Shown here piece after piece: positions 34,401-58,400 of a stretch of DNA of 64,000 bases. The stretch is taken from NCBI RefSeq assembly GCF_036507355.1, contig NZ_AP027877.1; one strand, 5' to 3'. Source of the stretch: Escherichia coli. Lineage in GTDB: Bacteria > Pseudomonadota > Gammaproteobacteria > Enterobacterales > Enterobacteriaceae. Positions within the stretch are counted from its first letter, which is position 1. Each line of letters begins with the position of its first letter. Made by a program: the position numbers.

Positions 34401-37400
34401 TAGTATCAGTTATTTCTCTGATCTCTTTAGTCATTTGGGAGTCGACCTCAGAGAACCCGATTCTTGATCTCAGTTTGTTTAAGTCCCGTAATTTCACCAT
34501 TGGTATTGTGAGTATCACATGCGCGTATTTATTTTACTCTGGAGCGATCGTCCTTATGCCGCAGTTATTCCAGGAAACGATGGGGTATAATGCGATATGG
34601 GCCGGACTTGCTTATGCGCCCATCGGCATCATGCCACTATTAATTTCACCTTTGATAGGACGTTATGGCAACAAAATAGACATGCGGTTGTTAGTGACAT
34701 TTAGTTTTTTGATGTATGCGGTTTGCTATTACTGGCGTTCTGTGACATTTATGCCAACGATTGATTTTACAGGTATCATTTTGCCGCAGTTTTTTCAGGG
34801 ATTCGCCGTTGCCTGTTTCTTTTTACCCTTAACAACGATTTCGTTTTCAGGCTTGCCAGATAATAAATTTGCCAATGCCTCGAGTATGAGTAATTTTTTT
34901 CGTACCTTGTCAGGATCAGTTGGTACATCGTTGACAATGACGCTGTGGGGGCGACGCGAATCGTTACACCATAGTCAGTTGACAGCAACCATCGATCAAT
35001 TTAACCCTGTATTTAATTCATCGTCACAAATTATGGATAAATACTATGGTTCGCTTTCAGGAGTTCTTAATGAAATTAATAATGAAATAACCCAGCAGTC
35101 ACTTTCTATTTCTGCAAATGAGATTTTCCGTATGGCGGCTATTGCTTTTATCTTACTTACGGTTTTGGTTTGGTTTGCGAAACCGCCGTTTACAGCGAAA
35201 GGCGTTGGGTGATGGTAAAAGCAGGGGGTTATAGCGGGTAAGACCGGGGATCTTAAGTCTGCGCCATCGGCAGCATCGCTCACCCAGGGAAAGGATGGCG
35301 ATGCTGCGTTGAAATGTTATTAACGGCCTTTTGCCAGATATTGATTCATCTCTTCTTCCGGCACCATTCCACCTCCCGTCGCCCACACCAGATGAGTGGC
35401 ATTACGCAGTTGTTCTGCGCTGAAACCGTGCATCAGTTGGTAACTTACTGATGCACACACGCGCTGAGGTCCGGCCATACCCGCCAGTGCCGAAGGTTCA
35501 AGACGAATACCTTCTTCCTGCGCCAACCCAAGAATTACAGTGCGGTTAGATGGCGGAAAGCCGGTCAAGAGTGTTTGGGGAGGTGGGGAAGGCGGTGATT
35601 CTGCATTTGCTCCACAACCAATACAATTTATAAAGACCTTGGCTAAGCATAAAAAAGCTATTTTTGGGTTTGAACCTTATGGATCAACTATGCAAGTAGT
35701 TGAGTTTGACTTGTCTGAGATTGATAAGGTTGTGGAAAAAATTTCACAGTCTTGCAATTGGAAATAACAAAAAAATCTCATATGAACCCAGTTGGCTCTG
35801 GGTTTTTTATTTCTGTTGTCTATAATGTATTCATAATTTTTACTGGGATACAGTGCACATAAAATCCCAATTGCGGTAGGACGATAACTGGATCAGGTGG
35901 AGGCACTTACGCAAGAATTGATAGTATTAATTTGCATAGAGCAACGCGAAGTTATTTATAAATTAACTGATATAGAGTACTAGATGTAATCCGAACCGGT
36001 TATGATTCGTCACCAATTTTGCAAGAGGCTGGGTAGGTAAGCTATTGGATACCGTAGGTAGCAAAAATATAGAAGGAGGGGAAGAATTGCTAAACTCGAG
36101 CATTCACTTAAATCTGAGTTATTTATTGTTAAGATATAATACACTTTGAATAATAGAGGCTATATGACAACGAAAATAAGCAAAGATGATAAACATCTGC
36201 TTGATCCTTATTTAAAATGGCTTGCAAACAAGAAGCTAATGGTTGCCTTCTGGTTGGTGCTAATGATATGTGGTTGCATATATGCATATATAGAAAATGA
36301 TTGGTCACTTCTTCCCCGATTCGGATGTTTAGGCATAATGATTGGCACATTGCTTACTCTTTCTCCGCTTTTTGCAGAAGGTATCTACCTATCAAGGCGA
36401 GAAGCATGAATCGCCACGGATAATCTAGACACTTCCGAGCCGTTGATAATACTGGTTTTCATATTCTGTCGGTGACATCTGATCGCTGGAACCATGCCGA
36501 CGCTTACTGTTATAAAACATTTCGATGTAATCAAAAATATCGCTGCGGGCTTCTTCCCGCGTTCCGTAGATCTTTTTCTTTATCCGTTCGCGTTTCAACA
36601 ACTGGAAAAAGCTTTCTGCAACCGCATTATCATGGCAGTTACCGCGACGGCTCATGCTGCCATCCAGGCCGTGTGATTTCAGGAACGACTGCCACTCATG
36701 GCTTGTGTACTGACTGCCCTGATCCGAATGAACCAGCACCTGTTTTTGGGGATTACGGCGCCATACAGCCATCAGCAGTGCGTTCAGGACAATGTCCTTT
36801 GTCATCCGGGATTGCATGGACCAGCCGATAATTTTGCGTGAGAACAGATCAACAACCACGGCAAGATACAGCCAGCCTTCGTGGGTCCTGATGTAGGTTA
36901 TGTCCGTTACCCAACGCTTATCCGGAGCATCCGGATTGAACTGTCGCTGGAGCCTGTTGGGCGACACGATACTGGCCTCGCCTTTACGTGCCCGCGGGCT
37001 CCGGTATCCGACCTGAGCCTTTATCCCGACACGTTTCATCAGTCGCCAGACTCTGTTCACTCCGCACTGTTGCCCGCTGTCCCGCAGATCCAGATGGATT
37101 TTGCGATAACCATAGACGCATCCCGATTCCAGCCAGAACTGTTTAATCTGCCCTGTCAGCCTCAGGTCTGCCTGATGGCGTTGTGAATGCGGCTGCTGAA
37201 GCCAGGCGTAAAAACCACTGGGATGAACATCCAGCACCCGACAGAGCAGGCGAACAGGCCAGCAACAGGTGTTGTCACGGATAAAGGCGTACCTCAGTCG
37301 GACAGCTTTGCGAAGTACGCCGCGGCTTTTTTTAATATGTCCCGTTCGTCGGTAACCCGCTTCAGCTCTTTCTGGAGACGGCGGATCTCGGCCTGAGCAT

Positions 37401-55400: not shown

Positions 55401-58400
55401 TCTTTCCTCGCAGTCCATGCCTTATCCCTTGCTTCCTGCAAAGTCATAAGCGGATATTTTCCGACAGTCAGGATTTTCTCCTTACCGTCAATCTTGTAGC
55501 GAAGCTGCCATACCTTTTTCCCTGATACAGGGACATAAAGGTACAGGCCATTACCATCGAGTAGGCGGTATGGTTTTTCTTTCGGCTTTGCTGCTTCAAT
55601 CTGCTTAACGGTGAGCATGGGTAAAAATCCGGTGGGTAAAATTATTTTATCCACTTTTTACCCGTCATGGAGTGCGGCTGTCAACGATCTGACGCGAACC
55701 ATGACGAACCGTGAATATACGGAAGGCTTGATATTCAGGGGATTTTGCGGACTGGTACGGATGGGAGCGAACTGATAAATGGTGTCCCCTGCAGGAATCG
55801 AACCTGCAATTAGCCCTTAGGAGGGGCTCGTTATATCCATTTAACTAAGAGGACAATGCGGCATGAGTATACCCGCTAATGGACTGCGGGGTAAGTACGC
55901 TGCCGTGCGATTGCTTAAACCCTCGCCATTTATGCCGGGTTTTTATCATTTTTCTTAATGTTTTCCGCACGTTCTGCTTTTTGGCGTGCTTCTGCTTTGC
56001 GCTTGTTGCTCATGTCGTTACGGATCTGTGCATGACTCATTAACGCGAAGATAAAGGTGCCGCCGCAGATGTTCCCCGCTAAAGTAGGTAGTGCGAAGGG
56101 CCAGATGAAATCGCTCCAGTGCAGCGTGCCGTTAAACACCAGATAGAGGATTTCAACAGAACCGACAACGATGTGAGTGGTGTCACCCAGGGCAATAAGC
56201 CAGGTCATCAATATAATCACCACAATCTTTGCCGCACCCGCTGCAGGAAACATCCATACCATAGTGGCGATCAGCCAGCCGGAAATGATCGCGTTGGCAA
56301 ACATCTCGCTGGGGGTGTTCTTCATCACATCCATGCCGATTTTGACAAATGCATCGCGAGTTTCTTCATTGAAGATAGGCATATATTCAAATGCCCACGC
56401 CGCAATACCTGTCCCGAGAATATTACCCAGCAGCACGACGCCCCATAACCGCATAAGTAAGCCAACGTTGCTCATTGTCGGTTTTTGCATGACGGGTAGT
56501 ACCGCAGTCACGGTGTTTTCGGTAAATAATTGCTGGCGGGCCATAATGACGATAATAAAACCAAAGGTATAACCGAGATTCTCCAGCAAGAAGCTGCCCG
56601 GCACACCTTCCAGTTCGACATGAAATATCCCTTTTGCCAGTAATGAAGCGCCCATCGACAGACCCGCCGCAATGGCTGACCACAGTAGTGCCATTGCGTC
56701 GCGTTCCAGCTCTTTTTCACCATCCTGGCGGATATGCTCATGAATTGCCATCGCCCGGGAGGGGAGTCGATCTTCATCTATTTCTATTTTTTTGCCACGC
56801 TCTTTTTCTTCACTCTCAACTTCAATTTCGTCGCTGTGTTGATCAATTTTGTCGTTGTCCATGGTCTCTTCTCTTGAATTAGCACGTATAGCTAAAGCGT
56901 AGCGGCTTTTTTGCTCGCAACTGGCGGGAGTTACTCTGAAAATGTAGAAAAGGCCGCGTTTGCCTTTTTCTGTTTCCATAGAATCAAGTAGCCTACAGGG
57001 CGGCGATTACCAGGCTATGATCAAATCAGCAAATCAGGGCGTCTGGACATCAGTTGACGTGCTGTTACAATCGCCCACACCTAAACAGGCGGATACGGTA
57101 TCGTTCCGTCATGGATGGCAAACTGCATAAGCCATAAAAAAACAGGGAGACATTTATGAAGCTTCGCCTGTCGGCGCTTGCTCTGGGAACTACGCTTCTG
57201 GTGGGGTGTGCGAGTTCCGGTACAGATCAGCAAGGGCGTTCTGACCCGTTAGAAGGGTTCAACCGCACCATGTACAACTTCAACTTCAACGTACTAGACC
57301 CGTATATTGTTCGACCGGTCGCTGTCGCCTGGCGTGATTATGTTCCGCAACCGGCGCGTAACGGTTTGAGCAACTTTACCGGCAACCTTGAAGAACCCGC
57401 GGTGATGGTGAACTACTTCTTGCAGGGCGACCCTTATCAGGGGATGGTCCACTTTACCCGCTTTTTCCTGAACACCATTTTGGGGATGGGCGGTTTTATT
57501 GATGTTGCAGGGATGGCGAACCCGAAACTGCAACGGACTGAACCTCACCGCTTCGGTAGTACGCTTGGTCATTATGGTGTGGGTTATGGGCCGTACGTTC
57601 AGTTACCGTTCTACGGTAGCTTCACGCTGCGTGATGACGGTGGTGATATGGCGGATGGTCTTTACCCGGTTCTTTCCTGGTTGACCTGGCCGATGTCTGT
57701 GGGTAAATGGACGCTTGAAGGGATCGAAACTCGTGCGCAGTTGTTGGATTCCGACGGTCTGCTGCGTCAGTCGTCCGATCCTTATATTATGGTGCGCGAA
57801 GCGTACTTCCAGCGTCATGATTTCATCGCTAATGGCGGCGAACTCAAACCGCAGGAAAATCCGAACGCGCAAGCGATTCAGGATGATTTAAAAGATATCG
57901 ATTCTGAATAAGAAACAAATAAAAAAGGTGAGTCGCAAAACTCACCTTTTTTGTTGATATCACTCAATTATCACAAGCAAAAGGAGATAAACCGACAATG
58001 ACCTAGACGTAATTATGTAAAAATACTGATGTTCGTCACTGACTATTTCCGATATTCAGCTGTTGAAAAATCAAAAAACTGGAAAAATAATTTTAAATAT
58101 CATCAAAATTAACACCTAGCGCATATAGTTGATTAATTTCATTTTGATATTCAGCCTGGCGATTTTGAAGCCCTTCTTCAATTTTACCTTCGAGATCCTT
58201 AAAATGCTTATATATTTTTTGAGAATGGCCAACGTTAACTTTGTTACCGACTAAAGTAGAAACTATTTTTTTTAGATGGTCGCATTTGTATTTTGCATCG
58301 TCCACTTGAAAATCATATCTTATTGCTCGACCATAACGTTTAAAAACTTCGTTTGGTTCTCTCAGTCTTTCCCCGTTGAGTTCATTTACAAATTGATGAT

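Follow-up and report, generated by a model that had tools for sequence, protein, structure and literature searches.

The 20 kb of foreign DNA between the dsdA stub and argW in this Escherichia coli chromosome is a cryptic prophage of an ordinary kind, lying at a site known as a hotspot in E. coli. Within the window, the whole 64,000-nucleotide stretch analysed (contig NZ_AP027877.1), the island spans 35529–55779 (20,251 bp), with the terminal 209 bp of dsdA on one side and argW on the other, as the initial annotation had placed it. We consider it very probable (roughly 90%) that it is the remnant of one prophage lineage, a single temperate phage that decayed in place at argW. Judging from the sequence, more than half of the phage genome has apparently been lost through deletions and an insertion sequence, leaving an element that appears stuck in the chromosome with some of its genes intact.

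The locus and its intact relative

Alignment against K-12, a check that the initial annotation had proposed together with a search for att direct repeats, shows collinearity through evgS-evgA-emrK-emrY and the last 209 bp of dsdA up to window position 35528, where it stops, and again from 54468 onwards with intS, argW and yfdC. The blastn match ends inside dsdA (K-12 2,479,202–2,480,530) at K-12 2,480,322 (position 25323 of the K-12 record L002); the remainder of dsdA, dsdX and dsdC are absent from the window. The G+C content along the island ranges from 0.31 to 0.57. Its anatomy, breakpoints and ORF intactness are read directly from the DNA, with features as follows (position, strand, description, basis).

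35320–35528, −, dsdA 3' stub, last 209 bp of the D-serine deaminase gene (blastn against K-12)
35529–36406, +, lambdoid post-replication remnant: 3' half of a phrog_1848 gene and 5' 87 codons of a hypothetical gene (PHROG, nucleotide identity)
36407–37635, −, IS3-family insertion sequence, 1,229 bp (NCBIfam NF033516, E = 8.5e-101)
37636–38036, +, hypothetical nin-region gene, 3' two-thirds, cut by the IS (nucleotide identity)
38222–39626, +, nin region: ybcN, ninE, ybcO, rusA, ylcG (full-length tblastn, 91–97% aa against LSC52 prophage proteins)
39712–40089, +, late-gene antiterminator Q, 125 aa (100% aa identity to LSC52; phrog_79, E = 2.8e-51)
40245–43004, mixed, cargo (moron) cluster from Q to holin (PHROGs 2809, 3275, 1450; 99–100% aa against LSC52), comprising the next three genes
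40245–40769, −, Blc-type lipocalin lipoprotein (NCBIfam NF007786, 314.5 bits, above cutoff)
40962–41921, +, 2-thiouracil-desulfurase (TudS)/DUF1722 (YbgA-like) protein (Pfam PF04463 and PF08349)
42273–43004, +, AraC/YdeO-like regulator, G+C 0.32 (YdeO model E = 7e-37, below its cutoff)
43193–44345, +, lysis cassette: holin 71 aa, endolysin 165 aa, Rz 147 aa with embedded Rz1 (PHROG holin, endolysin and Rz-like spanin matches)
44384–45079, +, DUF6979 protein (124 aa) and 67-aa hypothetical protein (99–100% aa against LSC52; PHROGs 5039, 12304)
45145–49908, +, packaging and early head: HNH endonuclease, TerS, TerL, YmfR, portal, HK97-type prohead protease (97–100% aa, full-length against LSC52; PHROG)
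49923–50582, +, in-frame fusion ORF, 219 aa: major capsid residues 1–72 and tail sheath residues ~350–498 (tblastn, PHROG tail-sheath matches)
50582–51120, +, intact tail tube gene, 118 aa, and tail assembly chaperone cut after codon 59 (LSC52 comparison)
51102–51566, +, ymfQ 3' part (Mu gp48-like baseplate gene), residues 41–194 (98.7% aa against LSC52 YmfQ)
51570–52502, +, glycine-rich tail-fibre pseudogene (CAA>TAA at codon 237, 52278–52280)
52503–52907, +, intact tail-fibre assembly (tfa) gene (99–100% aa against the LSC52 feature)
52882–53007, −, second tfa copy, partial (99–100% aa against the LSC52 feature)
53196–54317, −, Acyl_transf_3 family acyltransferase, 373 aa, G+C 0.31 (Pfam PF01757, E = 1.1e-28; phrog_3333 'O-acetyltransferase', E = 2.4e-86)
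54461–55618, −, intact intS integrase, 385 aa (99.2% aa against LSC52 IntS; 96% nt against K-12 intS)
55780–55854, −, argW tRNA-Arg(CCU) (ARAGORN, Rfam)

In E. coli LSC52 (NZ_CM137002.1, 1,031,349–1,075,094), argW is likewise occupied by a prophage, complete at 43.7 kb, with perfect 15-bp att cores at both ends, 43.7 kb apart, and torI at the far end. Except for two internal deletions, window positions 38039–64000 are collinear with LSC52 at approximately 97–99%, in three blastn blocks.

Window 38039–50138 = LSC52 record L001 8001–20120
Window 50135–51114 = L001 24343–25322
Window 51102–64000 = L001 32744–45598

Both prophages have IntS, the acyltransferase, the tail-fibre, head and packaging genes, the lysis cassette, the Q-cargo cluster and the nin genes; they differ only in the deletions and in the left 2.5 kb of the island, and every gene is full-length or cut exactly where the LSC52-based breakpoints predict. 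Unlike the window remnant, the LSC52 prophage is complete: it has two att cores, torI, exo/bet/gam, cI/cro and O/P together with all of its head and tail genes, and between ren and ybcN it carries accessory genes (emrE, ybcK) other than those of the window. The island contains none of the genes cI, cro, O, P, N, xis and torI, in agreement with the earlier description of a lambdoid part without immunity and replication regions.

Genes that remain

Outside the deletions, the retained ORFs contain no frameshift and one nonsense codon over ~19 kb. All five nin genes are intact and free of internal stops, as are the full-length holin, endolysin, Rz and Rz1 genes (Rz1 lipobox LVVSGC). A terminator-like hairpin 3' of Q (40188–40211) is a consensus match only. 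The six genes from HNH endonuclease to protease are intact ORFs, and the structural module shows 96.5–98% nucleotide identity to the isolated phages SfIV, SfII, SfI and vB_EcoM-689R6/720R4. A complete lysis and packaging set had been noted before; the lysis genes, HNH, TerS, TerL, portal and protease are indeed full-length, but with the destruction of the major capsid gene the packaging set is complete in a narrow sense only.

At the argW end, the acyltransferase gene adjoins the integrase gene, as in serotype-converting phages, and its product is a candidate O-antigen/LPS O-acetylase; at least 23 contigs have the identical acyltransferase adjacent to IntS at their argW site. IntS, with the Pfam domains Arm-DNA-bind_3, Phage_int_M and Phage_integrase, is the only integrase, as stated earlier. 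Its 'P4-type' character had been taken as the mark of a second element, which we reject: IntS and attP are 97.5% identical at the nucleotide level to those of Sf6 and ~95–97% to those of HK620, CUS-3 and an Stx2 phage, and the IntS cassette, shared with Sf6, HK620 and CUS-3, belongs to a conserved argW phage recombination module (PMC3509656). The search for att repeats found a single core in the window, the 3' 15 nt of argW (55780–55794, TGGTGTCCCCTGCAG); a second copy is kept in K-12 (pawZ) and, perfect, in LSC52.

Contigs L012, L016 and L017 have this prophage intact, and L011, L013, L014 and L015 have it with other deletions, the acyltransferase being identical in all; decay at the argW site thus recurs. 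In the decayed copies on L011, L013 and L014, the AraC-like, TudS-like and Blc genes survive, as do the holin and endolysin genes and the int-acyltransferase end, and Q is also seen on L011 and L013; on L015 the lysis genes are present together with the int-acyltransferase end, and the contig stops before the cargo cluster. The window's own junctions were absent from all 5,426 complete E. coli genomes searched and therefore rest on this single assembly; the EmrY allele of the window is not on record either.

This retention raises the question of domestication, in which the int-acyltransferase, Q-cargo-lysis and terminase-portal-protease blocks would be kept by host selection. The host might gain a surface modified against phages, an AraC-like input to the control of acid resistance, a regulated form of autolysis, or a store of genes with which incoming lambdoid phages could recombine. 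The near absence of disrupted ORFs, the recurrence of the same cargo, lysis genes and int-acyltransferase end in the independently decayed copies, and the presence of the Q-to-Rz block at 90% identity in ten lambda records (named Lambda_ev, Lambda_2E9, 4B5, 2G7a and 1H12) are consistent with such selection. By analogy, the AraC-like regulator might have a host role, as the prophage-encoded AraC-like regulators PatE, PsrA and PsrB control gad/hdeA genes in O157:H7 (PMC10877973). However, recent decay predicts intact ORFs equally well, the comparison set was picked through the acyltransferase, which makes the retention of that gene circular, and PADLOC found no defence system among the cargo. 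We therefore regard host selection as an unlikely, though not negligible, explanation, and any host benefit is inferred.

Lesions, proposed history and origin

The left arm departs most from LSC52. Its first segment (35529–36406) is 99.0% identical to the S21 argU prophage (L003 12001–12890) and 99.5% to phage IdasGreatGrand (L009 9001–9884); in both, the phrog_1848 gene (PGAP label 'TagO') comes directly after O-P-ren, and the phage DNA of the window begins inside it. The junction with dsdA shows only 2–5 bp of microhomology and was not found in species-representative genomes. The IS3-family element has 38-nt imperfect terminal inverted repeats, intact OrfA and OrfB with an A7G slippery site, and 99.8–99.9% identity to numerous copies on E. 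coli chromosomes and plasmids; it lacks a target-site duplication (flanks GCA/GGA), and its flanking sequences are unrelated and non-contiguous. The gene that it cuts is 99.8% identical to a gene of the LR-50 thrW prophage (L007 13814–14401); BstA was considered for it and rejected, there being no similarity. The left 2.5 kb has no match to LSC52 and its best matches are argU and thrW prophages and a lambda-like siphovirus, a pattern we attribute to ordinary lambdoid mosaicism plus IS-associated rearrangement; exchange with another resident lambdoid prophage may have contributed.

The collapse of the head and tail genes, suspected earlier, resolves into two losses relative to LSC52. Deletion 1 removed 4,222 bp (L001 breakpoints 20120/24343) at a GGCA microhomology (junction 50135–50138), creating the capsid-sheath fusion, whose exact product is on record nowhere else. 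Deletion 2 removed 7,421 bp (25322/32744), from the tail chaperone to ymfQ and including tape measure through baseplate J, at an imperfect 9-bp homology, GTGCGG(C/A)TG (junction 51102–51114). The 236-aa product of the interrupted tail-fibre gene is also encoded, identically, on an unrelated metagenome contig (L010).

We propose the following history, whose order of events is inferred. (i) A temperate phage, lambdoid in its regulatory, nin and lysis regions and equipped with an HK97-type head and an SfII/SfIV/SfI-type contractile tail, would have entered argW by its IntS/TorI recombination module, and then decayed in place; (ii) an illegitimate deletion from the middle of the post-replication phage gene to dsdA codon ~374, at 2–5 bp of microhomology, would have taken attR, torI, the early-left operon, the immunity and replication genes, dsdC, dsdX and most of dsdA, at least ~14 kb by comparison with relatives; (iii) the IS3-family element would have inserted upstream of the nin genes, followed by an adjacent deletion or IS-IS recombination with a loss of ~2 kb, which is suggested by the missing target duplication and non-contiguous flanks; (iv) two further short-homology deletions would have removed 4.2 kb (capsid-to-sheath genes) and 7.4 kb (tape-measure-to-baseplate genes); (v) the tail-fibre gene would then have gained its nonsense codon.

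These five lesions (left-end deletion, IS, the 4.2 and 7.4 kb deletions, nonsense codon) appear to immobilise the element. With a single att core and without a recombination directionality factor, it would be unable to excise, and it should be incapable of replicating or of building a capsid or tail. The initial view of a degraded prophage with intact cargo is thus borne out. Genes independent of the lost parts (acyltransferase, Blc, TudS-like, AraC-like regulator, RusA, IntS) could still be active. Expression of the late block that depends on Q (lysis and packaging) is unlikely, since the element has lost pR, N and the repressor region and carries the IS ahead of the nin genes.

That the island was assembled in place from at least two independent elements, for example a P4-like int and acyltransferase island, a lambdoid remnant and a myovirus remnant, was the original proposal. 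The spread in G+C, the P4-type Arm-DNA-bind_3 architecture of the integrase, the non-contiguous IS flanks and the differing best matches (the siphovirus IdasGreatGrand for 35524–44165, the myoviruses SfIV/SfII for 45145–51870, the podovirus Sf6 for int/attP) would fit it. Yet the same gene combination forms one complete, att-flanked prophage in LSC52, with intact copies on other contigs, and we therefore read the island as a single lineage and not as several assembled elements. A second integrase, a second att core and P4 genes are all absent from the window, and mosaicism is a property of the phage family itself (PMC3851460; PMC3509656). Assembly from separate elements appears largely refuted by the collinear relative, and we consider it improbable. 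An assembly error that makes an intact prophage look deleted, through collapse or mis-joining of contigs, is highly improbable: although the junctions occur in no other genome, they lie at 2–9 bp microhomologies in unique genes rather than in assembler-collapsible repeats, four separate junctions and a point nonsense mutation would be required, the nonsense allele recurs independently on a metagenome contig, and other genomes have similar yet different deletions of the same prophage.

Comparison with known prophages and phages

CPS-53/KplE1 of K-12 has the same attachment site and integrase as the single-lineage remnant described here (intS-argW 96% nucleotide identity) and is likewise a deletion-decayed remnant with a surface-modification gene set beside int. 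Excision of KplE1 is still possible. It has kept both att sites (pawZ) and torI next to an intact dsdCXA (PMC3509656), whereas the window remnant lost attR, torI and dsdCXA. The cargo of KplE1 is gtrABS, without lysis or packaging genes; the window has the acyltransferase and has kept late genes.

The Shigella flexneri serotype-converting myoviruses SfIV, SfII and SfI have packaging, head and tail modules 96.5–98% identical in nucleotide sequence to those of the window. SfIV is a myovirus with lambdoid regulation, and these phages have in common with the window both this type of regulation and, next to int/att, a gene for O-antigen modification (PMC3851460), for which the window acyltransferase is a candidate. 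According to the literature, they use the thrW site, a different integrase and gtr glucosylation genes, whereas the window has argW, IntS and an Acyl_transf_3 gene, in a defective copy.

The P22-like podoviruses Sf6, HK620 and CUS-3, also at argW, have Int and attP 95.8–97.5% identical to those of the window, but their structural genes are P22-like and unrelated. Sf6 carries an O-acetyltransferase gene beside int; the acyltransferase region of the window has no nucleotide match in Sf6, which covers only the int/attP part (query 1589–2915). The argW recombination module is the same in all of them (PMC3509656).

DLP12 of K-12 and DLP12-like argU prophages have the same set, ybcN-ninE-ybcO-rusA-ylcG-Q ... 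essD-rrrD-Rz, as the window, with 89–94% nucleotide identity for the argU prophage of strain S21. DLP12, another remnant with an intact lysis cassette, differs in its argU site and IntD, in a porin gene between Q and holin and in lambda-type late genes, whereas the late genes of the window are of the SfII type.

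Limits of the island and its chromosomal frame

From 15854 to 35528 the window is collinear with K-12 in reverse orientation (98.1% identity; pyrS through evgS-evgA-emrK-emrY), and the match stops inside dsdA at K-12 position 2,480,322, leaving the last 209 bp of that gene. K-12 homology returns from 54468 with intS, argW, yfdC and mlaA. The sole tRNA detected in the window by ARAGORN and Rfam is tRNA-Arg(CCU) at 55780-55854 on the minus strand, and a search of the window at the Rfam gathering thresholds gave argW alone as structured RNA. Since the K-12 match ends at 35528 and the tRNA begins at 55780, the foreign segment comprises 35529-55779 (20,251 bp), the limits already proposed in the initial annotation. 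Its G+C content varies between 0.31 and 0.57.

Two further features lie outside the island. At the nupC end, 236-1564 on the plus strand encodes an IS4-family transposase of 442 aa (NCBIfam NF033592, E = 8.6e-91); in this region K-12 has IS186C between nupC and pdeA. In the mlaA-fadL interval, the yfdF position of K-12, a gene of low G+C (0.32-0.33; 58099-59373, minus strand) is homologous to a 415-aa hypothetical protein of E. coli LSC52, with 80% amino acid identity and indels in an Asp/Asn/Ile-rich repetitive part. An in-frame stop leaves a 277-aa ORF in the window, and the gene is probably a pseudogene. The same gene is split into 277 and 111 aa in GCA_905398585.1 (L015, a contig with the same prophage), which, given this shared split, may come from a relative of the window strain.

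One prophage and its deletions

Megablast of window 35000-56000 against 5,426 complete E. coli genomes gave a single record with more than 80% coverage, that of strain LSC52. The match is a complete prophage, likewise at argW, with the 15-nt core TGGTGTCCCCTGCAG repeated perfectly at its two ends, 43.7 kb apart. Its genes are arranged in the following order:

First part: torI, early-left, exo/bet/gam, S24 repressor, cro-like, O/P, nin, Q
After Q: Blc, YbgA-like, HTH regulator, holin, endolysin, Rz, DUF6979, HNH, TerS, TerL
After TerL: portal, protease, capsid, connectors, sheath, tube, tape measure, baseplate
After baseplate: fibre, tfa, acyltransferase, intS, argW

Local blastn aligned the window with this locus (L001) in three collinear blocks:

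38039-50138: L001 8001-20120
50135-51114: L001 24343-25322
51102-64000: L001 32744-45598

The two internal junctions are deletions relative to L001. The first removed 4,222 bp, from codon 73 of the capsid gene to about codon 349 of the sheath gene, at a 4-bp GGCA microhomology, and created an in-frame capsid-sheath ORF of 219 aa (49923-50582). The second removed 7,421 bp, from codon 60 of the tail chaperone gene to codon 40 of ymfQ, and its junction has a 9-bp imperfect match. The major capsid gene, the connector genes, the 5' part of the sheath gene, the tape measure gene and the baseplate genes are absent or truncated, and cI/cro, O/P and N are absent. The tail-fibre gene carries a nonsense mutation (CAA>TAA) at codon 237. 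The same Q237* truncated fibre is encoded by an unrelated metagenome contig (L010; ENA ERZ27234713 k141_84828, 1,060 bp), 99.6% identical to window 51555-52521, and the nonsense allele is therefore real and circulates outside this assembly.

At the left end, the dsdA stub is fused directly to the middle of a phrog_1848 gene, and the two share no more than 2-5 bp at the join. The DNA at 35524-36407 covers the 3' half of this gene and the first part of a hypothetical one; its counterpart, at 99.0-99.5% identity, comes after O-P-ren in lambdoid prophages and in IdasGreatGrand, an isolated phage. Phage DNA thus starts downstream of the ren position, and the immunity (cI/cro) and replication (O/P) genes have been deleted. 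A single deletion therefore accounts for the loss of attR, torI and the early-left operon, of the immunity and replication regions and, on the chromosomal side, of dsdC, dsdX and most of dsdA. Compared with LSC52 and K-12, it would have removed about 11 kb of phage DNA and at least 3.7 kb of chromosome, an estimate in which these two genomes stand in for the ancestral flank.

The 164-aa phrog_1848 protein bears the PGAP name "type VI secretion system-associated protein TagO" (window 35529-35767; L003, the S21 argU prophage, 11750-12244; L004 8750-9244). No tie to type VI secretion was found; the protein is lambdoid, and its gene stands directly after O-P-ren both in prophages and in an isolated phage, a context that suggests a mis-transferred name.

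The left arm is interrupted by an insertion sequence:

36407-37635: IS3-family element, 1,229 bp, ending in inverted repeats of 38 nt; both OrfA and OrfB are intact, and the slippery site is A7G
37636-38036: IS right flank, the 3' two-thirds of another nin-region gene, intact in the LR-50 thrW prophage

The element has the hallmarks of the IS3 family, namely overlapping ORFs, a -1 frameshift site, a DDE transposase and terminal repeats; the assignment is based on NF033516 matches and on the -1 frame relation of OrfA and OrfB at A7G. No target-site duplication was found: the flanks read GCA and GGA and come from non-adjacent phage genes, whose homologous anchor points lie 2.2 kb apart in IdasGreatGrand. 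This points to an adjacent deletion or IS-IS recombination, which would have followed the insertion, and not to an element outside the IS3 family. The annotation of one match (H56) had raised the right-flank fragment as a remnant of a BstA defence gene; BLASTP gave no similarity and PADLOC no match, and by its homology the fragment belongs to the 3' portion of an uncharacterised gene of the nin region.

The initial annotation had described a degraded prophage assembled from more than one element. The first half of this description is borne out by the deleted or truncated lytic genes beside intact cargo, lysis and packaging ORFs. The second half is not supported, as the same modules form one complete, att-flanked prophage in LSC52. 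The full combination is also intact, with an identical acyltransferase, on three other contigs (L012, L016 and L017), and the mosaicism is therefore a property of the phage lineage itself and not of local assembly. The late genes are 96.5-98% identical at the nucleotide level to those of the isolated myoviruses SfIV, SfII, SfI and vB_EcoM-689R6/720R4, and SfIV is a myovirus with lambdoid regulation (PMC3851460). The P4-type integrase had seemed to favour a second element. IntS does have the P4-type architecture (Arm-DNA-bind_3, central domain and catalytic domain), but it is no sign of a P4 element, because the other genes are all explained by the intact relative; the primase/helicase and delta/psu/sid-like genes that accompany such an integrase in P4-like satellites were not found in the island. 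The int/attP segment is 97.5% identical to that of Sf6 and about 95-97% to those of HK620, CUS-3, HK633 and an Stx2 phage, and phages that use argW have a common conserved recombination module, attL-intS...torI-attR (PMC3509656). The island combines collinearity with complete elements (the 43.7-kb LSC52 prophage, SfIV/SfII and IdasGreatGrand) with the loss of essential lytic functions, as in cryptic prophages. We conclude that the region, as read from its sequence, is one defective SfII-like/lambdoid prophage at argW and not a composite island.

Surviving genes and present state of the element

The surviving ORFs are of full length, have no internal stops and share 91-100% amino acid identity with the LSC52 relative. 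Families were called from NCBIfam, PHROGs and Pfam:

nin genes and Q: ybcN, ninE, ybcO, rusA, ylcG; Q
Cargo: Blc-type lipocalin (NCBIfam score above cutoff)
Cargo: 2-thiouracil-desulfurase and DUF1722 protein
Cargo, 42273-43004: AraC/YdeO-like regulator, G+C 0.32 (YdeO model E = 7e-37, below its cutoff)
Lysis: 71-aa holin, endolysin, Rz with embedded Rz1
DUF6979 and a 67-aa ORF
Packaging and early head: HNH, TerS, TerL, YmfR, portal, prohead protease
Tail side: tail tube gene, tfa
Acyl_transf_3 acyltransferase, G+C 0.31, adjoining intS
IntS, 385 aa

PADLOC detected no defence system in the cargo. On the opposite strand (52882-53007, minus), a second, partial tail-fibre-assembly gene extends over the 3' end of tfa. 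The intact LSC52 prophage has it too, and it appears to be what is left of an invertible or alternative fibre segment. The block from Q through Blc, the TudS-like, AraC-like, holin and endolysin genes to Rz (39041-44276) matches, at 90% identity, the right end of ten lambda records with the names Lambda_ev, Lambda_2E9, 4B5, 2G7a and 1H12 (LR5976xx, LR5958xx, NC_049947); these lambda derivatives therefore carry a related Q-to-Rz block.

The AraC/YdeO-like gene lies about 7 kb from evgS-evgA-emrKY (27883-35212). The EvgS-EvgA two-component system controls YdeO and acid resistance in K-12, and this closeness is probably a coincidence. In O157:H7, gadE and hdeA are targets of the prophage-encoded AraC-like regulators PatE, PsrA and PsrB (PMC10877973). 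Tblastn against phages returned homologues of the island's regulator, none of which bore a PatE or Psr name; its likeness to PatE, PsrA and PsrB would be an analogy at the level of class.

Beside intS, at the 3' end of argW, attL retains its 15-nt core (55780-55794), this segment being 96% identical to K-12 and 97.5% to Sf6. The search for att direct repeats proposed in the initial annotation recovered this core only, and no second core was present in the window with up to two mismatches allowed. At the distal end, attR and torI are missing and the phage DNA is joined to dsdA. With one att core left, half of the recombination module is kept and excision should fail; from the single core and the lack of torI, we predict neither excision nor virions. 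The element would thus be a remnant unable to excise, replicate or make particles. Expression may persist for genes that have promoters of their own, namely those for the acyltransferase and, on the opposite strand, blc, and probably the low-G+C AraC-like gene. The late block that depends on Q is probably silent, because the nin/Q promoters and the antiterminator have been deleted and the IS cuts the nin genes off from emrKY transcription. A terminator-like hairpin follows Q (40188-40211), a weak hint in a scan that as a whole was not above chance; neither promoter nor terminator counts exceeded the expectation from shuffled sequence.

Recurrent decay, significance and comparison with known systems

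The dsdA junction and the two internal junctions occur in none of the 5,426 complete E. coli genomes, the GTDB species representatives lack the exact 39-mer that spans the dsdA junction, and no exact-protein record was found for the capsid-sheath fusion or for the EmrY allele of the window. At least 23 contigs have the identical 373-aa acyltransferase beside IntS at argW. Several contigs carry decayed copies of the same prophage, with deletion patterns (L011-L018) read from gene tables and not from nucleotide alignment:

L011: Rz fused to a DNA-circularisation/baseplate-J fusion
L013: TerL N-terminus fused to a truncated fibre gene
L014: several gaps
L015: portal gene 356 bp from the acyltransferase gene

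The deletions differ among these four, so that decay is recurrent and the copy in the window is one private variant. L011, L013 and L014 retain the AraC-like, TudS-like and Blc genes together with holin and endolysin; L015 retains lysis genes, and its contig stops before the cargo cluster.

The remnant might have been kept by selection instead of being neutral debris, as a domesticated module that alters the cell surface and feeds acid-stress regulation, with the intact terminase-portal-lysis block as a store of genes with which infecting lambdoid phages could recombine. In favour of this, lysis genes and the int-acyltransferase end persist in the independently decayed copies, of which three out of four also retain the Q-side AraC-like/TudS-like/Blc cluster, and the AraC/YdeO-like regulator lies about 7 kb from the EvgAS-EmrKY acid-response locus. 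Recurrence of the Q-side cargo, the lysis genes and the int-acyltransferase end extends to several of these copies but not to every one. We regard selection as improbable.

For a defective prophage decaying at argW, the finding carries little weight beyond annotation, in which the correct label is a single defective prophage. Because dsdCXA went with the trapping deletion, the strain should have lost both the detoxification and the use of D-serine. This is uncommon, as a survey of 1,591 E. coli genomes recorded dsdA in 1,561 of them (PMC4366372). The mapped breakpoints and the differently decayed copies together provide a clean example of short-homology prophage decay at argW-dsd.

With lambdoid phages the island shares the nin genes, Q and holin-endolysin-Rz/Rz1 in lambda order, and 38037-44165 is 96.6% identical at the nucleotide level to the lambda-like phage IdasGreatGrand, whereas the cI/cro and O/P genes typical of these phages have been deleted. 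With SfII/SfIV-type phages it shares HK97-type head and packaging genes and a contractile tail, at 96.5-98% nucleotide identity over the retained parts, the tail surviving as remnants (sheath C-terminus, tube and YmfQ). The Acyl_transf_3 gene at intS is, by position and family, a candidate for the serotype-changing O-antigen modification gene that such phages carry beside int/att. In contrast to their integration at thrW, the island lies at argW, and the related LR-50 prophage lies at thrW. Closest in kind is CPS-53/KplE1, the cryptic prophage of K-12 at argW, and the island is, like it, a cryptic prophage of an ordinary sort in a well-known hotspot, argW-dsd.
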